Shown: positions 32,923 through 44,588 of the stretch, piece after piece | Numbering within the stretch: the first letter of the stretch is position 1 | Layout: the number at the start of each line of letters is the position of its first letter | Origin: a phage | NCBI GenBank assembly: GCA_025829515.1 | Contig: GCA_025829515.1_4865.1 | Direction: 5' to 3' (one strand) | DNA: 64,000 nucleotides | Made by a program: the position numbers and the translations under genes | Notes under the pieces: generated by a model | What the model was told of the DNA's origin: nothing | Seen by the model: only the letters and a program-made list of their open reading frames with translations | Database searches by the model: none

Positions 32923-32977
32923 AAATAAAAGCAAACGAGTACCCCGTTAGGGGTACTCGCGTTACTTATTTTTTTTG
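32921..32977. terminator. bidirectional intrinsic terminator
   Basis: A-tract, GAGTACCCC-GTTA-GGGGTACTC hairpin, T-tract; between convergent genes. Confidence 0.7.
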
Positions 32978-33551: not shown

Positions 33552-35813
33552 CTATCGCGCTTGTGGTAGGAAAATGTTCGCGATTTGTCGTGCCGGTATG
33601 ATATCTAACGCGGCGTTGACGATGCTGCCCTGTGACCAGGCACTTGCCCAGTTCTGCGCCCAGATAGACGCGTTGATTTTAGCCTGCGCGATACCGTTGG
33701 TACGCTCGTAAAGCGTGGCAGCACCCAACACAGACATAAATTCACTGAACTTGTTATCATCATCAAACACACCAATATCAGTTACAATCGGCATGTACAT
33801 AACACGCGACAGGTCACGAATAGTTACCTGTATATCACACGACAACGGCAGACCGTCAGCACGCCACCCTAACCCACCTGTACCAAACTGGAGACTCAAG
33901 TTAGTTACCATGGCATTACGCATGGAATAACGACCACGAGAATAACACTCCAGATAGAACGGGTGCGTAAACGATTGTTTACCGGTTGCTAACGGGCAAA
34001 CTGCCGCTAACCAGAACGACAACGGGACAATCAGATCCTGGAACACATCTAAGTCGTTACCCGACCAACAGCGAAGGGGAATGCTTAGCGAGATATCGTC
34101 ACCTGAGGTGTCTGAGGAGTCCCACACTTCTGGGAAGTCAATCACTGACGAGTTGTACAGCGACATAATCCCTGATAAATGCAAGAAATCGAGTGCGCCT
34201 GTAAAGGCGGACTTCAACCCAGTAATGAGACCATCGACTGCGTCGAAACCAGTCTTACCACCAGAGAGGTTTACTTCCAAAGAACGTGCTTTCTGTGTGG
34301 CGGAGTTAACCGTGCCAGAGATTTCAGGTTCTTTGGTGGTGTTGGAGAACGAACGCCCTACGGTATCACGTCCATCAACACGCCAAGTAATCCACTGCGA
34401 ACCATTGCGTATCTCCGAAGCGATGTTCGAAGTTAACCCATCCATAGCGCCTTCTAAAATATCGATATAGTCTTTGAAGACGCTACCGACAGATTCTTTC
34501 TGGCCTTGGTCCATCCAGTTTTCAATCTTCCCAATGTCGAGATTATTCTCATCCATTGAGTTTGCTTCGGTCTGACTTTTAGCAACTTGAGCCTGGTTCT
34601 TTTCAACCTGTGCCATACGCTCGGCAAGCTCTTTACGTTGCGCATCACCTTCGTTTTCGAAGTTTTCAGCTTTACCTCCTTGTGACTGAGCATCCTGAAT
34701 GCTTCCGTTCATCCCTGCTACCAGTTCGTCTTCTTTGTTATCGACGTTTTCAAAACCGGCATCGTACCCTTTACCGGCTTTGGCTACGTATTCAAGGTTA
34801 CGTAAAGAAACCTCGTACTGCGCAGCTTTCTCCAAATGGGTTGTTGAGTACGTCGCTTCCAGATAGAAGTTTCGCAAACGTCGAGCCATGTCCTCTTCGT
34901 TACTCGACTCTTTACGAATTTTATCGATGGTTTTCGCCTGGTAGTTGGCTAATGTTTGGTAGCGGTTAATCATTCGATAGATATCGAACTCACCATCAGC
35001 TGTCCAGATTTCTGGCAGCATGGAGTACCACTCTTTGCGGTCGCCGTTGTACTTATTAGCAGTACCGCCTTTCTCAGACCCATCTACAGCATTAGCAAGC
35101 TGGAAAGTCCCTAACACACCCGTTGGTACCAATCGGCGATAAACTAACTGGGTGTTGACCATATTCTGCACAGCGCGCAGATACAAGTGCATTGTCGGTT
35201 TCACGTAGTAGTAGCGAGAAGTCTGCTTGTTCAGCACCATCTTCAACATACGTGGTGTAATTAGAATAACCGCAAAGGCAACCGTACCTACTGCGGCCCA
35301 TATTGCTGCGGCGGCAACATACGTCCCCATCGCACGTAACATACCTGGGTAGTCACCTGTGCGCGCCAAATACGCTAGGTTGGAATCGTACATATTCGCG
35401 AAGAATGCAGCTACCCCGATATATCGAGGTTTACCGAAACGACAATGAAGATAAAAACTGTTTTGGTTAATAGCTTCGTAATAGAAAGTCCCTAAACGAT
35501 AGGAACCACGTTGGTCTTGACCTTTAACGTACTTTGAGTACGAGCCACGACCTGCATCAGGTTGTGCAAAAGCACCTGTTGAACTCGGATCAGCAAACAT
35601 CGTAAACTGCGGCGGCGCATTTAACGCTTGCGAACCACCCATCGTGGTATCTTCAAACGAGAGCATCGCGTTAGAGTAACGACGCAAACCCAGGAAGCGC
35701 TCATCGCGCTGTGCGGTTGTACCGCCAAACAGGCCGGTTACCCATCCTGAATCTTTTAGTTGTCTTGCTTCCACGTAAAACCTCTCTGTAAGATGATTAG
35801 GGGGTGTTGCCAC
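33552..35813 (-). CDS. large hypothetical virion-block protein with one hydrophobic segment
   Basis: 753-aa ORF directly downstream of the giant gene; hydrophobic stretch GTYVAAAAIWAAVGTVAFAVILITP. Confidence 0.6.
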   Translation of the reverse strand: MATPPNHLTERFYVEARQLKDSGWVTGLFGGTTAQRDERFLGLRRYSNAMLSFEDTTMGGSQALNAPPQFTMFADPSSTGAFAQPDAGRGSYSKYVKGQDQRGSYRLGTFYYEAINQNSFYLHCRFGKPRYIGVAAFFANMYDSNLAYLARTGDYPGMLRAMGTYVAAAAIWAAVGTVAFAVILITPRMLKMVLNKQTSRYYYVKPTMHLYLRAVQNMVNTQLVYRRLVPTGVLGTFQLANAVDGSEKGGTANKYNGDRKEWYSMLPEIWTADGEFDIYRMINRYQTLANYQAKTIDKIRKESSNEEDMARRLRNFYLEATYSTTHLEKAAQYEVSLRNLEYVAKAGKGYDAGFENVDNKEDELVAGMNGSIQDAQSQGGKAENFENEGDAQRKELAERMAQVEKNQAQVAKSQTEANSMDENNLDIGKIENWMDQGQKESVGSVFKDYIDILEGAMDGLTSNIASEIRNGSQWITWRVDGRDTVGRSFSNTTKEPEISGTVNSATQKARSLEVNLSGGKTGFDAVDGLITGLKSAFTGALDFLHLSGIMSLYNSSVIDFPEVWDSSDTSGDDISLSIPLRCWSGNDLDVFQDLIVPLSFWLAAVCPLATGKQSFTHPFYLECYSRGRYSMRNAMVTNLSLQFGTGGLGWRADGLPLSCDIQVTIRDLSRVMYMPIVTDIGVFDDDNKFSEFMSVLGAATLYERTNGIAQAKINASIWAQNWASAWSQGSIVNAALDIIPARQIANIFLPQAR

Positions 35814-35822
35814 CCCCTACGA

Positions 35823-38800
35823 TTAGCTTGCTTTCCGACTTACGTTTAACGACGGTGTCGGTTGGGTTATTTCCTGCCTACGTGCAGCTGAGCCAGGAGG
35901 AGGCACATTTGCCGCTTGCTGGATACTACCACCCCGTGTGTCGTTTGCCGCTCTTGGATTTGATTTCAAAATATCACGAATCTCTTTCAAGTAATCGCGA
36001 GACTGAATCAGTACCTTGAGCTGCTGAACATCTATCGGGTCACCATTCAGCGTTGGCGTCGATGCTGTAGCATCAGAAGTTGGAGCGGCAACTGGACGAG
36101 CTGCTGCGTTAACCTGCGCTTCCGCGCCTGCTTTCACTTTAGCAACATCCGTCGCAGACAATCCTTCTGCTGCAGCTTGCGACGCTACGGTTTCGGCCGT
36201 TGTTGAGGCATCGGATGTTCCGGTACCGCCTGTGGTTGGTGTAGGTGCTGCTGGTCCTACATTACCTGCGGCGGTAGCCATTGCATCTTGTGCCGCCATG
36301 GCCCCTTTCTGCGTCAATACGTCATCACGACGATTAGCATTATCTGCTGGCAGGTTATCTGCCGGTGACAGACTCGGGTCATTAGCGGCCGGTGCACCCA
36401 TTGCTGCTGCCGGGTTGGTTGGTGAATTAGGCGACAAGCCTGCAACCATATCCTTCGTCTTGCTCGGATCGGCAGCGACTTCGTTGGCGGAAATTGCACC
36501 CATGCGGCGGTTCAGTTCCTGAATAACCCCATCTACGCTACGTATACGACCGTTGCTGTAGAAGACGTTGGCATTCCCTCTCAGTATTGCGGATGTAATC
36601 CCAGGAGCACTCGATGCCGCCATATTCGGATTACGCTTCCATGCTTCCAGGAATTTCTTACCGCCGCCTGCACCCAGGAAGTGGTACAGATAAGCCACGG
36701 CTGGAGGTGGTGCTTTACCACCCAGGTCACGTTGTGCTTTTTGGATGTTGTCACGAATGAACTGTACACCCAAAATAGCATTCGCCCACGGGTCCATCTG
36801 GTTAACACGCGGAATACCGAACTTCCGCGAATACCCCTTCATCATCCCGTCCCACGTACCGTTAACAAACTGGAACAACCCAGACGCCGAAGCATACGGG
36901 TTTTTAGCGGTGTAGTTAAAACCAGACTCCGCTTTTGCCATTGCTAACGCCACAGCAGGTGGCACGCCCATCATGTTCGCTGCATCGGTAATCAATGCTT
37001 TGATATTCGGAACGTTCAACGCACCCTTTCTACCCAACATTTCTATCGGGTATTTTTCAGCCAGTGACTTATAATCACCGTCTTTCACATCACTCAGGTT
37101 AATCGAAGACGAACCAGTGGTCATTGCAGCGTAGTTCCGCACACCGCCAACCGCATCGACGACTTGACCCAAGTTACCCGGCACACCACCACTCGTACCC
37201 GATGGAATGTAGCCTGAGGCGCGAGCACCGTCAGATGACAAAGAATCTCCCGAACTGATGTTCGAGTCTTCTTCATCTTCACCGGTAACTTCCAGAGAAC
37301 TGCGGTTCTTGTTACGATCCTTCCAGCGTGCACGCTTGCCATTATTTTTAATGGCTTTAATCATGTTACGCACGGCAAGGTCAGCTTCTTTTGACAACAG
37401 CTTCAGCGTTTCCAGCTCGGCTTTGATAGACGATGGGTTCGTGTTAGCATCGCCCCCTAATGGGTTGATATTCACTTCCCACACCGACTGTCTTATACCG
37501 CCTTTCAAGCTATAAGCTGTTGACATCATCAAACTGATTTCGTACAGGTAACCGCCGGTCAGTTTCAAGTTCAGCGGATCGGCTGTTGGCAGGTAGCGTT
37601 TCACCCCAACCAAATACGTCATGAATACCGGTAAGAAGCGGTCAAAGAACCACCGTTTCAAACGATCTTCTTTCGGTGTGCCGATAGCGTCTGGAACCAT
37701 CGAAGCGATGGCTTTCTTCCAGTCACCTTTATAACTTGCGGTTTTCACGTCGATGTCTTTGATGACGTTCTTCTCGAATACCGTAATCAACGTGCGTGTG
37801 GCGTTGTCGATGGTGGTAAAACCATAAGTCTTCCAACGTACCGACTCCATCGCATTCATGTCTTTCTGGTCGAGCACCGCGTTCCAGTCTACCTGAATCT
37901 GAACCTGCTCTGTTCCGTCTTCCCAACCTTCTACCTTCGCCAGATTTTTATTACGTTCGTTATCCAACTGTCCAAGTTTGTTGATAGCTTCATCAACACC
38001 CGCGGACTTAATCCCCTCCACGGCCGGTGCCATTCCGTACTTACGTGCTTTCTTATCGTCCATTCTGAACTTGATTGCACGCTCGACTTCATTCTGCACT
38101 TCCATAACCTCTTCACCGCTCAAAAACTCCTTCGGTGTAAAGGTTACAACGTCCCAGGCTTTCGAGAAGAAGCCTTGGTTGACTTTGCGTGGGTCTGTTA
38201 ACGAAGAGAACGCTTTTGCATCCTTAGTCATCTTCATTTTGTTGAAGAGTGTCTGCATGTCCTCTTTCGATACTTTCTTAGCATCGCCGACGTCAGCCAA
38301 CTGGATACTATTCGGCATTGATTTCAGTGCCGTAATCCAGCGGAGATAAATCGGAATAAAGCGCTGAAGCATAAACGCTTGGAAGGCCAACATCTCGCCT
38401 TTTTCCTCAACGTTAATACCGAACCCTTCAGCTAACTTCTGAACGTCTTTTCCACCTAGCCCACGGAGACTGGCTTGGCCATCTTCCGCGTAAGACACAT
38501 ACTCACGCAATGCGTCTTCTAAGTAACGCGCCTTCGCCCCGTCATCCGACGACCACTTATCGTAATCACGGAAACCGTACTGAGCTAAACGCATCTTATC
38601 CAGGTACTGGGTATAGGTAGTCGTTGCGATCTTGTACGCGGCGTAACCTGCCGCGGCGATCGCACCACCGATAAGAATTGCCGGCCAGCCCACTGCTGTC
38701 ACGACGGCAGATGCCGCAGTTGCCACAGCGGACACCGCGGGTGCCGCCAAACGGGTTACTGCGAACTTACCAACATTCCACGCAGCCTTACCTAAAAGAC

Positions 38801-41800
38801 CTACGGGTTTTAACACACCCCATTTCGTGATAGAACCGAGTATATTACCCACAGTTCCCAAGATACTGACGATGGGACCGATGATAGGTAAGCCTTTCAC
38901 CACATCCCACAGACCGCCAGATTTCCCTTTGGAGCCCTGCGCTTTCTCTTTCTTCTCCTTACGTTTCTCACGCCAACGTTTGAAGAAGTTAAAGTAGTCG
39001 CGTTTTTCATCACCTTCAGGTGGCTTGTTACGTTTACCGAACTTCGCAAACATGGTACGGATGATGCCATCGTCACCGCCTGCGCGGGATACTGATTCGC
39101 GCATGGTGTTAAACCACGACATCTCTTGCAAGCCAATCATTCGGTCCAAGCGTTCAAACAATCTTGCACCTGCAGATTTGGCAGCGTTCTTCCCTTTGTT
39201 GATAACCCGACCTGCTGCATCGCGCGCGGTCTCAAGGTCGTCCTTCGCGTCACCGTAGACTTTACGGCCAGAAAGACCACCTTTCGCGTTCAGATGACTG
39301 CGATAGAATTCAGCGACATCATCATCGCGTCCTGCCAATCGACGTTCAACTTCGTAGCGTGTGGCAATGTCGTGTCGTGCTCCACGATATCCGTCGAGCA
39401 TATCCCCAGCCCGGCCTCGGAAACCACTGAACCAACCACGCAGGCGGTCGCGTCCACGACCAAAGAACGCTTTTGTTCTTGACCAACGTCCACCAAAACG
39501 TTCAGACAACGACGATTTCGCACGATCATACGCCCCGCGTACTGCACGACCGATCGTACTACCGCCACCCCCGACACCCTTCTCCATTTCCTCTGTCCAA
39601 CTTTCGTCTTCCGGATCTCCCGGTAAACGTTGATTCAACAGTTTATAGATACGGATAAGAATGTGGTTGGTTTTCTTGCCGGTTGATGAGAAGATACTGA
39701 AACCGCCACCCCCACCATCTTTACGACCTTTCCACCAACGCGTTAGTGGGTTGTCGGTAATCATGTCTTTCAGACGATCGACACCACGTTTCGCAAAACC
39801 GAGCACTTTACCCGGTAAGCTCGTTACGCGGTTGAACGCTTTCTGGAGACGTGTCTTTTCTTCGCCTTCCGGAATCTCGTTCAGCCAGTCCTTAATCTTA
39901 CCAACGATGCTGCCCGCTTTCGGTGACAGGAAATCCAGGAACCTTTTCGGTAGCTTAGCCACCTTATTAAAGCCTAAGCCGATCTTACTGGCCAGACCTT
40001 GGGTCAGCGCTTGGATTTTCCCACCTTTATAGTAGCGGAGTTTACCGGCAGCGGCTAAGTCAGCGGCCGCTAGTACCAGGTTACCTGCGGAGTCAACAAT
40101 ATCACTCCCCAGTTTGATATCGTCCAGCGTTTTCAACTGAACCATTTTACCATCAATGACCTGATAGTATTCCCCAGCTTCCAGACGTGCACCTTGTAGA
40201 ACAACGTTACCGTGGTCATCGTAAACATCGCGGATACCCAGTAGTCCTTTACCGAAGGAACTTACCGCTTCAAAACCACCACGGACACTACCACTGATAA
40301 GGCCACGCATCCGGGTTAAGAAACCAGGACCTTCGCCACCTCCCATGCCTGCGACTTTACCGCGTGCCCAACCACCGAACTGGTTCAGTTTATTCCAGGC
40401 ACCCTTAACACCACGTTTCGCAAAGCCGCCGATTCCTGCTGCGGTGTCGAACAACACACCGCCCCAACGACGAATAAGCCCATCCTCACCGATGATAATA
40501 CGACGGCGTCTACCGCCACCGCTACCACCGCCAGGGCGAGGCGGACCCATTTCTTCATCACCAGAACCAGCACCCCCTGCTAACGAAGCCAGGAGAACCC
40601 CTTCTTCGTCCATACTTCTGACGTGTTCCAGAATTTTCTGGAGGGTGTCACTGTTGTTGTTACCCCGAATCGCTTCGATGATACCGTCAAAGTTATTCCG
40701 TGGTGCTTCTTCGCCACGGTTACGTTGACTCAACAATTCAACAAAGTTAGTCGAAGTTTCACCGTAGAGAACTGCGGCTAGCTGCCGAGGCGACATTCCG
40801 CGGCCTTTACCACCGCCACGTAAAGCCGGCGGCAACGACGTGTCATCGGCACCACCACTTGCCCCTTGGTTCATTCGGCGCAGATAGTCGCCTAACGCCG
40901 AACCATTTTGCAGCTTACGTTGAATCTCCTGGTCACGAGTCAATGCACGCCCGCTGCGTGTCTTACCCATTGCCAAGTCATTAAACAAGGTATAGGGATC
41001 GGACAGGTCTTTATCCACGCCGAAGGTGTCACTCTTCGCGTCGTAGTTAAAGATACCCGCATCACGCAACGCTCGCTCGCCGTAAATATTCACCGCCTCG
41101 TCGATAATTGCCTGACGTTGGGTGATAGATGACTGCACTGTGGAGATTTTGCGAGCCAGTTCGTTACTTAATTCGTTGCTACCACCAGTAAGACTGTCTG
41201 AATGCCCCTGTAACGCTTCCTTAATGCGTTCTGCGGCGTTTCCTGGCATATACCGATGAAGATGCATCGGGTCTTTCAGAATCGCTTCTACGTCGAATGC
41301 GCGGCCCTGCGAGGCACGTGACTCGATATAGTCGGCAAGATGCTGTCGATCCTTCTGCGAGAGCGTTTTGCCACGGTCAACAAAATCCACAGTGCTGTTA
41401 ATGGAATTTTGGAGACGCAGGCGCTGCTCATCGTTTGCAACCGCTTTGCGTACACGGTTACCGACCACTTTGCGGTCCACGAAACCACGACTGGTGATGT
41501 CGTATTCCAGATCGGCATGTTCGCCATAGCCACGACGAACAGATTTGTTAATCTCTGCCAGCCAGGCAGGAATAACTTCAACCAGGCTAAGATACGCTTT
41601 ACGGTCAAACTTCGCCGAGCGACTTAACGTTTCGCCATTACGCTCATCAAGGAAGGCTTTCTCACGGTTTAACGGTTGGACAATACCGAGTTCATTCAGT
41701 ACCCGGAACAAATCCGCCAACGGTCCTTGCGTTTCGCCTGCGATAGCTGAGTTCGAGATAGAGGAAAGATTACCAAAGGTGAACGCGCCCTTCTGCAGGC

Positions 41801-42944
41801 GTTTCATGACCTCTGGATTTTTCTCCATCTCCTCACGAGTCCATTTCTGGAGTTTCTCGATTTGTGGGCCGAGTAGTTTCTTCGCAAGGAATCCGCTACC
41901 CCATGCAGTTGCTTTATCGCGAGCATTTGTTTTGCGACGTTCGGCAGTCAACGAAGAGCTGTCGCTCATGCCGAAACCGTCTTCAACACCCATGCCGAGA
42001 ACAGACTCTAACAAACCACGACCTTCGCCAAATATACCAGAAATTTTCTTCTTGGTATTTTCGCGAATCATGTCCATAAACCCGTCAGCATAACGCAATG
42101 GGTTCATCCATTCCGCAGCCTGGCGTTTAACGTTTGCCCAACGGACTTCTGAGAAATCTTCCTTCGCGTAGTCTGGCAGCGCCGTGTTCTTCACGATGGC
42201 TTCTAAAGCAGGCGTGTTACGATCGAACTCCGACTGCTTCATCTTCACGATGTCTTGAATGGCGAACAGGGTACGGTATTGCAATTCGAGTTTCTTACGC
42301 TCGATGTTTAAGAATACCCCACGGCTTAACCCGGTTAGCAGGTTAATGTCTTTCGCCATCCCAATCATGGTTTGGTGCATTGCATCCGCGCGCATCTCTT
42401 TGATGCTGTCGCGGAGCTTATCCTCTACCATGCGGTCCTGCAGCTGACGTTGTTCGTCGGCGTCCTTTGGCACGCCTGAGAAAACGTCGCCCAGTTCACG
42501 ATCCATCAACGCCTGATTAGGATCGTAATTTTGGTAATCCAACTGGTCAGATTTTGACCACTTGTCGAAGCGCTTAGTAACTGCATCCGGCAAGTATTTC
42601 TTCATCGTCGGACCGAGTTGGCGTGCTTGCATCTTCAGCGTGCGCTCGGTCTTCTCAAGCTCCCCTTTCGTATGGGCGTAAATGTCCTTTGCTGCAGCTG
42701 CCGCTGACTGATAGCCCTCGTATGCATCAGCTGCCGGCTTAGGCATCCCCTTGAGGATAACTTGGTCACGTTTCCCTTCTGGCCAGATAGTTGACAACGC
42801 CGACTTCCTGGCAACATTCAGGGTACTGAGTATCGGGCTTCGTTTTTTCTCGTCTTTGGGACGGGGTGGTTCACCGAAATCATCCCAGTCGTCGAGTCTA
42901 TCTAAATCGATATCATCGAAACCGTCTTTGCCTCTTTTTGCCAT
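35823..42944 (-). CDS. giant virion protein (2373 aa) with C-terminal lytic transglycosylase domain
   Basis: Uninterrupted 7.1 kb ORF; Gly-rich segments; AKAESGFNYTAKNPYASASGLFQFVNGTW (SLT catalytic region) about 380 aa from the C-terminus; Ala/Pro/Thr-rich tail. Confidence 0.85.
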   Translation of the reverse strand: MAKRGKDGFDDIDLDRLDDWDDFGEPPRPKDEKKRSPILSTLNVARKSALSTIWPEGKRDQVILKGMPKPAADAYEGYQSAAAAAKDIYAHTKGELEKTERTLKMQARQLGPTMKKYLPDAVTKRFDKWSKSDQLDYQNYDPNQALMDRELGDVFSGVPKDADEQRQLQDRMVEDKLRDSIKEMRADAMHQTMIGMAKDINLLTGLSRGVFLNIERKKLELQYRTLFAIQDIVKMKQSEFDRNTPALEAIVKNTALPDYAKEDFSEVRWANVKRQAAEWMNPLRYADGFMDMIRENTKKKISGIFGEGRGLLESVLGMGVEDGFGMSDSSSLTAERRKTNARDKATAWGSGFLAKKLLGPQIEKLQKWTREEMEKNPEVMKRLQKGAFTFGNLSSISNSAIAGETQGPLADLFRVLNELGIVQPLNREKAFLDERNGETLSRSAKFDRKAYLSLVEVIPAWLAEINKSVRRGYGEHADLEYDITSRGFVDRKVVGNRVRKAVANDEQRLRLQNSINSTVDFVDRGKTLSQKDRQHLADYIESRASQGRAFDVEAILKDPMHLHRYMPGNAAERIKEALQGHSDSLTGGSNELSNELARKISTVQSSITQRQAIIDEAVNIYGERALRDAGIFNYDAKSDTFGVDKDLSDPYTLFNDLAMGKTRSGRALTRDQEIQRKLQNGSALGDYLRRMNQGASGGADDTSLPPALRGGGKGRGMSPRQLAAVLYGETSTNFVELLSQRNRGEEAPRNNFDGIIEAIRGNNNSDTLQKILEHVRSMDEEGVLLASLAGGAGSGDEEMGPPRPGGGSGGGRRRRIIIGEDGLIRRWGGVLFDTAAGIGGFAKRGVKGAWNKLNQFGGWARGKVAGMGGGEGPGFLTRMRGLISGSVRGGFEAVSSFGKGLLGIRDVYDDHGNVVLQGARLEAGEYYQVIDGKMVQLKTLDDIKLGSDIVDSAGNLVLAAADLAAAGKLRYYKGGKIQALTQGLASKIGLGFNKVAKLPKRFLDFLSPKAGSIVGKIKDWLNEIPEGEEKTRLQKAFNRVTSLPGKVLGFAKRGVDRLKDMITDNPLTRWWKGRKDGGGGGFSIFSSTGKKTNHILIRIYKLLNQRLPGDPEDESWTEEMEKGVGGGGSTIGRAVRGAYDRAKSSLSERFGGRWSRTKAFFGRGRDRLRGWFSGFRGRAGDMLDGYRGARHDIATRYEVERRLAGRDDDVAEFYRSHLNAKGGLSGRKVYGDAKDDLETARDAAGRVINKGKNAAKSAGARLFERLDRMIGLQEMSWFNTMRESVSRAGGDDGIIRTMFAKFGKRNKPPEGDEKRDYFNFFKRWREKRKEKKEKAQGSKGKSGGLWDVVKGLPIIGPIVSILGTVGNILGSITKWGVLKPVGLLGKAAWNVGKFAVTRLAAPAVSAVATAASAVVTAVGWPAILIGGAIAAAGYAAYKIATTTYTQYLDKMRLAQYGFRDYDKWSSDDGAKARYLEDALREYVSYAEDGQASLRGLGGKDVQKLAEGFGINVEEKGEMLAFQAFMLQRFIPIYLRWITALKSMPNSIQLADVGDAKKVSKEDMQTLFNKMKMTKDAKAFSSLTDPRKVNQGFFSKAWDVVTFTPKEFLSGEEVMEVQNEVERAIKFRMDDKKARKYGMAPAVEGIKSAGVDEAINKLGQLDNERNKNLAKVEGWEDGTEQVQIQVDWNAVLDQKDMNAMESVRWKTYGFTTIDNATRTLITVFEKNVIKDIDVKTASYKGDWKKAIASMVPDAIGTPKEDRLKRWFFDRFLPVFMTYLVGVKRYLPTADPLNLKLTGGYLYEISLMMSTAYSLKGGIRQSVWEVNINPLGGDANTNPSSIKAELETLKLLSKEADLAVRNMIKAIKNNGKRARWKDRNKNRSSLEVTGEDEEDSNISSGDSLSSDGARASGYIPSGTSGGVPGNLGQVVDAVGGVRNYAAMTTGSSSINLSDVKDGDYKSLAEKYPIEMLGRKGALNVPNIKALITDAANMMGVPPAVALAMAKAESGFNYTAKNPYASASGLFQFVNGTWDGMMKGYSRKFGIPRVNQMDPWANAILGVQFIRDNIQKAQRDLGGKAPPPAVAYLYHFLGAGGGKKFLEAWKRNPNMAASSAPGITSAILRGNANVFYSNGRIRSVDGVIQELNRRMGAISANEVAADPSKTKDMVAGLSPNSPTNPAAAMGAPAANDPSLSPADNLPADNANRRDDVLTQKGAMAAQDAMATAAGNVGPAAPTPTTGGTGTSDASTTAETVASQAAAEGLSATDVAKVKAGAEAQVNAAARPVAAPTSDATASTPTLNGDPIDVQQLKVLIQSRDYLKEIRDILKSNPRAANDTRGGSIQQAANVPPPGSAARRQEITQPTPSLNVSRKAS

Positions 42945-42974
42945 AATGTTTCTTCCAATTCAGGAGCCTAAAAA

Positions 42975-44588
42975 GTGAGAAAGCTTAACTGGGTAGATTT
43001 TTATCTACTGAACGTTAATAAGTCCCTGGTGTCGCATTTAAAACCAGTTACAACAACAGACACCTTTCAGGGACTGACGAAAAACTTTCACCCTGAAGGA
43101 CTGTATTCAACCGAAATTTTTGGCCTCACAGGGAGCGAAGCACGAGACTCAACGTTCTCGTACATTGATATCAAACTGGATATCATTTCGCCGACCGTTT
43201 GTTTGGCATTGTTCCAGCTGAAACAGCTGTACGAAGAAATCTGTTCCGGGAAGCGATTCGCTATCTGGAATGAGAAAGAAAAAGATTTCGAGCCGGCTCT
43301 GCCCAGTGATAAAGGTGCAGACACCGGCTTCAACTTCTTCCTACGCTACTACGAACAACTGACACCGGGACGCAACGAATCGATGCGTCGCGACGAGACA
43401 GTCGATTTCTTCAATAAGTTCCGTCCGGTCAGTCTCAGCCGCTATGTGCTGGTTCTGCCTGCGGGATTACGTGATTTGGTCATTCGTCAGGATGGCCGCG
43501 ACCAAGAAGAAGAGATTGGCGGACTCTACCGCCGTCTGATTTCTCTGGCACGTGCAATCCCCGACCGCAGTACGCGAACGGAACTGACTGACCCGGTTCG
43601 CTGGAAGCTCCAACAAACCTTTAATGATATCTGGATGTACTTCTTCAACATCCAAGACGGTAAAGGTGGTTTTGCACGTCGTAAAGTGACGTCACGTAAG
43701 TTAATGAACGGTACGCGTAACGTACTGTCTTCATTCTCAACCGGTTCCAAGGTCATGGGTCGCGAAGATGCGATTCGTCCAACGGATACCCGTATCGGTT
43801 TGTACCAAACCCTGAAGGCATTACTGCCTGTGGCTCAATACCACATCCGCGAACGTTACCTCAGTAACATCCGGGCAGGGGACGGCAACTTATACGGCGT
43901 TAACACCAAAACACTCAAGCGTGAGTTCCTGGAAGTCTCCGGGCGGGTGTATGACCTTTTCACTACCGACGATGGCATCGAAACACTCATCAACAGAATG
44001 GAAGCGCGCGAGCTTCGACATAAACCGCTGATGATTGATCCGGACCATTACGTGGCATTAATCTACCAGGACAAACGCAGCTTCAAAATCTTCTACGATA
44101 TTGAAGACCTGCCGGAAGGACGTGACCGTAAGCTTGTCCGCGGACTGAGCTTAGCGGAACTCCTCTATTTGTCAGGTTACGATATTTGGAATGACTACTT
44201 CTCGTTCATCACGCGTTATCCGGTTACGGGACGCGGTTCGACTTACTCCTCGACCATAAGATTGGAGACCACCACCTCTTCCCTCTATTTGCATGAACTG
44301 GAAGACGATTGGGTCACGTTAAAAGAGAAGGGAGCAATTAGCTTCCCTGACCGTACCGTGAAAACCTTTGTGGAATCCATGGCACCACATCCATCCCGAT
44401 TAGGTGGGTTGGGTGGTGACTACGATGGCGACACCGGCTCAGCAAACAGCCCGATGTCAACCGAAGCGCTCGAGGAAAATCGGAAGTGGGTCAGTTCGAA
44501 AAACTACTGGTTTGCAACAGACGGCAGTTTCAAAATCAATCCGGTTAACAACGTGATTAAAAGAACGACTGCTGCGCTGTTGAAATGA
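42975..44588 (+). CDS. RNA polymerase beta-prime-like subunit, N-terminal portion
   Basis: VLPAGLRDLVIRQDGR...LYRRLI and FARRKVTSRKLMNGTRNVLSSFS resemble conserved beta-prime regions; DYDGD (44418-44432) sits where the catalytic NADFDGD motif would be. Confidence 0.7.
   Translation: MRKLNWVDFYLLNVNKSLVSHLKPVTTTDTFQGLTKNFHPEGLYSTEIFGLTGSEARDSTFSYIDIKLDIISPTVCLALFQLKQLYEEICSGKRFAIWNEKEKDFEPALPSDKGADTGFNFFLRYYEQLTPGRNESMRRDETVDFFNKFRPVSLSRYVLVLPAGLRDLVIRQDGRDQEEEIGGLYRRLISLARAIPDRSTRTELTDPVRWKLQQTFNDIWMYFFNIQDGKGGFARRKVTSRKLMNGTRNVLSSFSTGSKVMGREDAIRPTDTRIGLYQTLKALLPVAQYHIRERYLSNIRAGDGNLYGVNTKTLKREFLEVSGRVYDLFTTDDGIETLINRMEARELRHKPLMIDPDHYVALIYQDKRSFKIFYDIEDLPEGRDRKLVRGLSLAELLYLSGYDIWNDYFSFITRYPVTGRGSTYSSTIRLETTTSSLYLHELEDDWVTLKEKGAISFPDRTVKTFVESMAPHPSRLGGLGGDYDGDTGSANSPMSTEALEENRKWVSSKNYWFATDGSFKINPVNNVIKRTTAALLK

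Follow-up and report, generated by a model that had tools for sequence, protein, structure and literature searches.

What is the giant protein encoded on the minus strand of this phage genome, and what might it do in the virion and at the host envelope? The gene occupies positions 35823..42944 (minus strand) of the window, by which we mean the whole 64-kb stretch of DNA that was analysed, and specifies 2373 amino acids plus a stop codon from an ATG at 42944. The original prediction had described it as a single 7.1-kb open reading frame, which it is; with the base composition of the 64-kb window, the computed chance of 2373 stop-free codons is ~1e-53. The compositional features proposed at the same time are also present, namely a charged N-terminal region (18 K/R and 20 D/E in aa 1-100), Gly-rich segments (Gly makes up 30% of aa 801-900), and an Ala/Pro/Thr-rich tail (28 Ala, 21 Ser+Thr, and 6 Pro in aa 2201-2300). 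The protein contains no Cys, and a search of the 7.1-kb gene for tandem DNA repeats returned none.

Comparison with known phages places the gene precisely. The protein shares 99.1% amino acid identity over its full length with SPN3US gp239 (YP_009153533), the two being separated by 20 substitutions and one extra residue, and the neighbouring genes and their spacing are identical; the two phages are sister isolates with one and the same gene. Thirty-four records of SPN3US-like phages match at 96-99% nucleotide identity, the closest being SPFM phages (99.7% at the amino acid level), and the source of the window is an SPN3US-like Seoulvirus, a Salmonella jumbo phage. What looked like a paralogue or a scrambled homologue in SPFM20 and SPFM8 proved to be a database artefact. 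The protein also gives a full-length family match to PHROG 3201 (2456 bits, over two stretches, of which aa 1033-2373 is the best). We found 94 giant homologues of 2094-2862 aa, with identities down to 22%, and 90 of them fall within 2200-2600 aa; a 39-sequence subset of these was aligned for the analysis of conservation described below.

The virion proteomics of SPN3US bears directly on where the protein resides. By mass spectrometry, gp239 is present in virions, goes undetected in 64(am27) particles, which lack tails, and drops more than 10-fold in the 255(am107) particles, which are also tailless, and the authors of that work call it the tape measure protein (PMC5105663, PMC10052503, PMC5694885). 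The earlier assignment as a virion protein is thereby supported through a 99.1%-identical counterpart. On the evidence of that counterpart it is a tail-associated virion protein, and it carries an intact SLT domain of the type found in phiKZ gp144 and gp181.

Among more distant relatives, phiKZ gp181 (NP_803747) offers the most complete comparison. Homology between the two proteins is colinear and falls in four BLASTP blocks that correspond to the N-terminus, the hydrophobic segment, both copies of a repeated domain, and the SLT domain. Identity is only 21-24% in the main blocks but 35% in the SLT domain, and gp181 is somewhat shorter (2237 aa versus 2373 aa). The genetic neighbourhoods are shared as well, with a divergent beta-prime gene upstream, a gp182-type ring gene downstream, and a hairpin beyond the stop codon. 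[quoted passage not shown] Downstream and co-oriented lies the gene for SPN3US gp238 (33552..35774, minus strand), a homologue of phiKZ gp182 (1e-40), which makes up the baseplate hub's hexameric "spacer" ring in the 2026 phiKZ structure. Its start is likely the GTG at 35774 rather than the ORF-maximal position 35813. Because the genes on either side correspond to phiKZ gp180 and gp182 in the same order and orientation, the proposed parallel with the gp181 neighbourhood is real. The parallel has its limits: phiKZ carries an additional gene, gp179, between its two polymerase genes, and its divergent spacer is 75 bp compared with 30 bp here. A comparison of gp237 with phiKZ gp184 showed no similarity.

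The 30-bp spacer (42945..42974) that separates the two divergent start codons, as predicted, is in essence a pair of ribosome-binding sites placed back to back (AGGAG for gp240 and GGAAGA for gp239), and it is kept at 23-32 bp in four genera. The accompanying suggestion that both putative promoters would overlap coding sequence is geometrically reasonable, judging from the layout of this spacer. A sigma-70 scan found 6 sites where 11.1 were expected by chance, a scarcity that fits host-independent transcription and is in itself uninformative; the phiKZ late motif TATG was found at the start codon only, where it is not conserved. Directly past the stop codon lies a conserved GC-rich hairpin, AGGGGGTG-GCAA-CACCCCCT (35799..35818, minus strand).

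We then considered whether the protein could act on peptidoglycan. An SLT, or family-1 lytic transglycosylase, domain lies at aa 1984-2140 (36525..36995, minus strand). The PF01464 match itself covers aa 1984-2072 (E 3.6e-9; 36.7 bits against a cut-off of 21.3) and, at nt 36729-36995, falls inside the interval of nt 36650-37050 where an SLT catalytic region had been anticipated. That region had been described as a C-terminal domain; the SLT assignment stands, but the domain stops short of the C-terminal end, with ~230 residues after it. The domain aligns with the solved transglycosylase of phiKZ gp144 (3BKH; E 2.5e-15), such that E2006-S2007 pairs with gp144 E115-S116, Y2085 with Tyr197, and H2088 with His200. 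In Slt70 the counterparts are the catalytic Glu478 and the activating Tyr597. Glu115 is the catalytic residue of gp144 (PMC5406664). The corresponding E2006 (nt 36927-36929, minus strand), whose loss had been named in advance as an observation that would count against the prediction, is intact and lies in the motif AKAESGF (aa 2003-2009, nt 36918-36938); Y2085 and H2088 are encoded at nt 36681-36692 (minus strand). E2006-S2007 is kept in 36 of 38 relatives, the remaining two bearing instead a GH19 domain that replaces SLT, and E2006-S2007, Y2085, and H2088 are common to every SLT-bearing relative aligned. The muralytic module varies within the gp181/gp239 family among SLT and GH19, with M23 or VanY in addition in some relatives. 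Muralytic activity has been measured for the C-terminal part of phiKZ gp181 (Briers 2008, as reviewed in PMC5380687). With its catalytic residues intact, the SLT domain studied here is supported, by alignment, as one that would act as a lytic transglycosylase. The endolysin gp144 (PDB 3BKH; 9XPS chain S), which was the sole match when the whole protein was used as query against PDB sequences, has this catalytic domain in common but is otherwise different: with 260 aa and a peptidoglycan-binding domain at its N-terminus, it serves as endolysin and neck "wedge" and is no giant protein of the tail interior. As the PDB search matched gp144 only, neither gp181 nor gp239 has a solved structure.

The remainder of the protein was examined through structure prediction, hydropathy, and alignment. 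An acidic and aromatic N-terminal segment (aa 1-36; 42837..42944, minus strand) is predicted to be disordered and includes the invariant residues D10, D15, D19, and R35. It is followed at aa 37-420 (41685..42836, minus strand) by very long alpha-helices predicted by AlphaFold2 with low to moderate confidence, for example at aa 69-117 and aa 164-253. The motif IVKNTALPDYAKE (aa 250-262; 42159..42197, minus strand), the N-terminal KNTALPDYAK motif, is nearly invariant across the family and coincides with a helix break. A compact helical/beta-hairpin domain is predicted at aa 450-650 (40995..41597, minus strand; pLDDT 75-89; invariant P459 and D482), and the variable, Gly-rich, basic region beyond it (aa 651-1343; 38916..40994, minus strand) aligns poorly between relatives. 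Hydropathy and alignment identify two hydrophobic, Gly/Ala-rich, membrane-like segments within aa 1344-1440 (38625..38915, minus strand), spanning aa 1344-1373 and aa 1399-1440. A hydrophobic segment precedes the first copy of a duplicated helical domain by ~10-60 residues, mostly no more than about 20, in 38 of the 39 aligned sequences. The two copies, A (aa 1445-1566; 38247..38612, minus strand; R-x3-Y-G ... L-E ... R-F-x-P) and B (aa 1696-1803; 37536..37859, minus strand), match each other with an hhalign probability of 98.5% (E 2.3e-15), and aa 1440-1860 are predicted to form compact domains. We call this an orphan domain, as it has no detectable known fold; its profile matches 1395 cluster representatives, and nearly all of the best 150 contain two copies. 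The Ala/Pro/Thr-rich tail (aa 2141-2373; 35826..36524, minus strand) is better conserved over its last ~60 residues.

On this evidence, the orthologue of SPN3US gp239 and phiKZ gp181 in this SPN3US-like jumbo myovirus is probably a tail tape-measure-type protein. The long helices modelled at aa 37-420 favour this reading, and that region looks, in the predicted structure, the most ruler-like of the whole protein. Several further traits are tape-measure-like: the protein lacks Cys; the aligned family members retain the hydrophobic segments in 38 of 39 cases; the length of the family is tightly held; and a gp182-type hub ring gene lies directly downstream, much as 48 and 54 come after gene 29 in T4. 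T5 Pb2 and mycobacteriophage TM4 Tmp are tape-measure proteins that also bear lytic or membrane modules, and the protein resembles them in its predicted helical N-terminal part, its hydrophobic segments, and a muralytic module toward the C-terminus. The comparison with T4 gp29 is one of proposed function and of gene position before a tube/hub junction ring gene; a sequence relationship is undetectable (hhalign probability 0.06%, and none by BLASTP), and the 2373-aa protein is four times longer, with about half the usual ratio of length per residue. Pfam and NCBIfam searches of the protein matched SLT alone and no TMP family, and a comparison of gp238 with T4 gp48 gave nothing significant. A frameshifting chaperone pair of the lambda G/GT type is absent upstream, where a divergent gene encodes RNA polymerase instead; T4 gene 29 also lacks an adjacent chaperone pair, so this feature is not universal in myoviruses.

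Length counts against the whole protein being a simple ruler. If the whole protein spanned a 200-nm tail, which is the length of the phiKZ tail and not that of SPN3US, each residue would account for 0.84 Å, compared with a classic tape-measure ratio of ~1.5 Å. A ruler of straight helix would need about half as many residues, and no more than about half of the protein can be ruler; the ~1340 N-terminal residues, up to the hydrophobic segment, would fit 200 nm on the same phiKZ-based length. In favour of a tape-measure-type protein, a trimer would occupy just ~13-37% of a lumen of that length, 40-68 Å wide. Another reading, which we regard as possible but doubtful, is that two machines have been fused, with only the N-terminal ~1340 residues serving as tail ruler and the family-specific C-terminal ~1000 as an ejected trans-envelope conduit. 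The conduit would comprise the hydrophobic segment, the two orphan domains, the swappable muralytic module, and the disordered tail.

A related but improbable reading dispenses with the ruler and makes the protein an ejected "pilot," or ejectosome, protein like T7 gp16, stored in the tail, forming a trans-envelope conduit and digesting peptidoglycan, while tail length is set otherwise. The twofold excess of length would suit such a protein, as would the dissimilarity to known tape-measure families and the concentration of a conserved hydrophobic segment and conserved globular domains in the C-terminal 1000 aa. T7-like gp16 (internal virion protein D) is itself a large, ejected, envelope-bridging protein with an SLT domain, and tblastn gives SLT-only matches to podovirus internal virion proteins; however, homology is confined to that domain, which is N-terminal in gp16, and gp16 is stored in the podovirus head core. 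The tight conservation of family length, the very long helices predicted in the N-terminal region, and the adjoining hub-ring gene, as in T4, all speak against a pilot protein without ruler function, and SPN3US and phiKZ have no other known ruler candidate. Ejection and measurement are, moreover, not mutually exclusive roles.

In a view of phiKZ gp181 dating from 2008, the protein would be the central cell-puncturing needle of the baseplate, and a review table still lists gp181 as a "needle-like cell-puncturing device, putative trimer" (PMC5380687). In the 2026 phiKZ structure, however, the spike is gp164, with gp163.1 as the tip, gp101 as the hub, and gp174 as the pin; a separate spike and spike cap are present in Goslar too, and the modelled parts of our protein include no predicted beta-helix or OB-fold. 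The needle idea is superseded by the phiKZ structure and largely refuted, which leaves it highly improbable. The text of the 2026 phiKZ atlas makes no mention of gp181, and the gp181/gp239 protein is not discussed in the searched text of the 2026 phiKZ and Goslar cryo-EM papers; the silence of the atlas is in keeping with a symmetry-mismatched protein concealed inside the tube. Finally, the label "tail fiber protein" carried by most GenBank records and by the name of PHROG 3201 is an annotation only, is not supported, and is scarcely credible for a helical protein with a hydrophobic segment, a lysin, and no fibre-like repeats, given that phiKZ fibres are the gp131-135 paralogues, the fibre/baseplate candidates of SPN3US are gp168-170, and the specialist literature says tape measure.

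How might a tape-measure-type protein of this kind operate? A few copies would lie inside the tail tube, with the helical N-terminal half running along the tube and helping to set or fill its length, and the C-terminal part positioned near the baseplate hub beside the gp238 ring. Once the sheath has contracted and the spike is gone, the protein would be expelled ahead of the DNA, and its SLT domain could cut peptidoglycan locally. The hydrophobic segment and both copies of the orphan domain may then insert in or bridge the inner membrane, a membrane role predicted from hydropathy alone, and so open the way for the genome and for the virion RNA polymerase ejected with it.

The literature already describes the gene, its phiKZ counterpart, its lysin domain, and the location of the protein in the virion, and a giant lysin-bearing tail protein is ordinary for phages of the phiKZ/SPN3US type. 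The value of the analysis is corrective, in that most public records say "tail fiber protein" and reviews describe gp181 as a needle, neither of which fits current structures. Beyond this, the hydrophobic segment, the duplicated orphan domain, KNTALPDYAK, and the interchangeable lysin module provide targets for addressing how phiKZ-like phages move DNA and proteins across the envelope. If the C-terminal part does form a conduit, it might also organise the membrane site at which these nucleus-forming phages, early in infection, deposit their genome and virion RNA polymerase.

The 2373-aa protein encoded on the minus strand at nt 35823-42944 is the counterpart of gp239 of Salmonella phage SPN3US (genus Seoulvirus), with 99.1% amino acid identity; at the DNA level its gene is 99.1% identical to Salmonella phages SPFM2-22 and 96.3% to SPN3US. 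The open reading frame was confirmed where originally placed, with an ATG start and 2373 codons, and a stop-free run of this length would arise by chance at about 1e-53 given the base composition of the window. The negative GC skew across the gene is expected because it lies on the minus strand. The compositional features first described are also present: residues 1-100 contain 18 Lys/Arg and 20 Asp/Glu, residues 801-900 are 30% Gly, and Ala, Pro, Ser, and Thr are abundant in residues 2101-2300; Cys is absent from the protein. SPN3US gp239 (259 kDa) is the largest protein found in purified virions, was not detected in the tailless particles of a gene-64 mutant, and is >10-fold below wild type in 255(am107) tailless particles (PMC5105663, PMC5694885, PMC10052503). 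Its phiKZ orthologue, gp181, is reported to have a muralytic activity of 60,000 U/mg (review PMC5380687, citing Briers et al. 2008). We consider the tail location and lysin domain of gp239 solid. The protein has already been described in the literature. The original prediction was right in both observation and interpretation; "tail fiber protein", as databases label it, is incorrect. What we add is incremental: an orphan-domain duplication, a hydrophobic segment, an N-terminal motif, swapping of the lysin module, and a post-stop hairpin.

The single Pfam domain in gp239 is the lytic transglycosylase domain SLT (PF01464), matched at aa 1984-2072 with E 3.6e-9 and a score exceeding the curated threshold; its position, nt 36729-36995, falls inside the range first proposed. 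Among solved structures, a sequence match was obtained only with the phiKZ endolysin gp144 (3BKH/3BKV; 9XPS chain S; E 2.5e-15 over aa 1987-2139). This alignment pairs E2006 with Glu115, Y2085 with Tyr197, and H2088 with His200 of gp144, so the catalytic Glu, whose loss would have spoken against the prediction, is retained. In gp144, the catalytic residue Glu115 is equivalent to Slt70 Glu478, and Tyr197 corresponds to Slt70 Tyr597 (PMC5406664).

The parallel drawn with the phiKZ gp181 neighborhood is now a tested fact on the grounds of homology of three adjacent genes and identical gene order and orientation in SPN3US and phiKZ. BLASTP aligned the window's protein colinearly with gp181 over four segments (aa 12-267, 438-603, 897-958, and 1383-2149); the fourth shows 24% identity over 813 columns (E 2e-29). 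The divergent neighbor, gp240, matches phiKZ gp180 (33% identity, 4e-77), and the downstream gene product, gp238, matches phiKZ gp182 (31% identity, 1e-40). In SPN3US, gp239 is preceded by genes for a head maturation protease and a virion protein, then by two small ORFs and two RNA polymerase genes; gp239 itself is divergent and is followed by genes encoding a protein of 740 aa and a virion protein of 183 aa. The label "beta-prime-like" is correct for gp240 because it carries the RNA polymerase beta-prime Mg-binding signature GGDYDGD at aa 480-486; its generic PHROGs label is beta subunit. In the virion RNA polymerase, gp240 is the N-terminal beta-prime fragment and gp241 the N-terminal beta fragment; the downstream gp238 is an essential tail protein (PMC5105663, PMC5694885, PMC10052503). 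In SPFM20, the gp239 homologue (LR535917; P0051) is the same protein except that its consecutive 20-aa blocks (60-nt lines) run in reverse order. We rejected a rearranged gene in favor of what is apparently a database artefact, the sequence lines of the record having been reversed; SPFM8 (LR535906) likewise matched in fragments in tblastn and may have the same defect.

The gp240 gene starts at 42975 on the opposite strand, which bears out the predicted 30-bp spacing. This divergent spacer measures 29-30 bp in SPN3US-like phages, 29 bp in Erwinia phage Stratton, 32 bp in Wellington, 23 bp in Cronobacter phage CR5, and 75 bp in phiKZ. In alignment it is made up of two back-to-back ribosome-binding sites. 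Each gene must therefore be transcribed from a point inside the other gene or within a very short leader. Both promoters had been proposed to overlap coding sequence, which is geometrically reasonable. Promoters of the phiKZ type are short, with TATG at the start site as the late motif (PMC4666361), and one embedded in coding sequence is plausible; no transcription start site was located. Although conserved, the flanks are coding sequence. Between 32500 and 45000, sigma-70-like promoter matches were fewer than in shuffled sequence (6 versus 11.1 +/- 3.5); this fits a phage transcribing with its own polymerases but is uninformative.

The co-oriented genes gp239, gp238, and gp237 form a unit closed by a strong, bidirectional, terminator-like hairpin at 32935-32960 (10-11 bp stem, 7 GC pairs), after the 183-aa virion protein gene. 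A second, GC-rich hairpin, AGGGGGTG-GCAA-CACCCCCT (35799-35818, minus strand), lies directly 3' of the gp239 stop codon. It is kept by compensatory stem changes in SPAsTU, Stratton, Wellington, and CR5, and phiKZ has a hairpin of different sequence at the same position (five relatives in all); a T-rich tail follows it in most relatives and is weak in the window. Attenuation, termination, or RNA stabilization are possible roles for this hairpin. The longest-ORF start of gp238 (GTG 35813, minus strand; 753 aa) falls within it, and the SPN3US annotation places the start at GTG 35774, preceded by GAGAGG (740 aa).

Outside the SLT domain, gp239 begins with an acidic and aromatic, predicted disordered stretch with invariant Asp residues (aa 1-36), followed by very long predicted helices, one of 90 residues, modeled with low to moderate confidence (aa 37-420). 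At a helix break lies the almost invariant motif IVKNTALPDYAKE (aa 250-262, nt 42159-42197); its conservation exceeds that of the catalytic site, even among relatives at ~20% overall identity. A compact, confidently predicted domain (aa 450-650) and a variable, basic, Gly-rich region (aa 651-1343) lead to strongly hydrophobic, Gly/Ala-rich segments (aa 1344-1373 and 1399-1440). A hydrophobic segment precedes the duplicated domain in 38 of 39 checked sequences, mostly within ~20 residues. The duplication comprises two copies of one orphan domain (aa 1445-1566 and 1696-1803; profile-profile probability 98.5%, E 2.3e-15), both with invariant R, Y-G, E, and R-F-x-P, and their spacing is held near 250 residues. 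A Ser/Gly-rich linker, the SLT domain, and an Ala/Pro/Thr-rich tail that is conserved at its end complete the protein.

Tape-measure proteins usually combine a helical N-terminal region with hydrophobic segments and a lysin toward the C-terminus, as in T5 Pb2 and mycobacteriophage TM4. A comparable architecture, with a predicted helical part, in gp239, together with a tightly conserved family length (2200-2600 aa in 90 of 94 homologues) and the phiKZ gp182 homologue gene directly following, leads us to infer a ruler function. In the 2026 phiKZ atlas, gp182 forms a hexameric spacer ring that sits between the tube initiator and the hub; T4 likewise has ruler gene 29 followed by genes 48 and 54, whose products form the two-layer tail initiator complex (Goslar preprint). 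The older reading of gp181 as a puncturing needle was discarded, since the atlas assigns spike, tip, and hub to gp164, gp163.1, and gp101, respectively. Its text mentions neither gp181 nor any tape measure, and this silence, with those assignments, is consistent with a protein concealed inside the tube lumen. With the phiKZ tail length, a trimer of the 259-kDa protein would fill 13-37% of a 200-nm lumen 40-68 Å wide and so physically fits. Against a ruler, gp239 resembles no recognized tape-measure family or T4 gp29 and, at 0.84 Å per residue, has about twice the length that a straight-helix ruler would need. If a ruler exists, it is probably the ~1340 residues ahead of the hydrophobic segment, which as helix would span ~200 nm. 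The calculation is no more than suggestive, since a globular domain and Gly-rich segments lie within those residues.

Across 38 aligned relatives, every SLT-carrying protein keeps E2006-S2007; the two exceptions have GH19 in the SLT position. A precomputed domain table contains further relatives with GH19 instead of SLT and some with an additional M23 or VanY peptidase domain (replacements and additions occur among P0041, P0043, P0044, P0094, P0084, and P0086). The muralytic module is therefore interchangeable inside an otherwise colinear protein, and such exchange is a frequent trait of virion-associated lysins.
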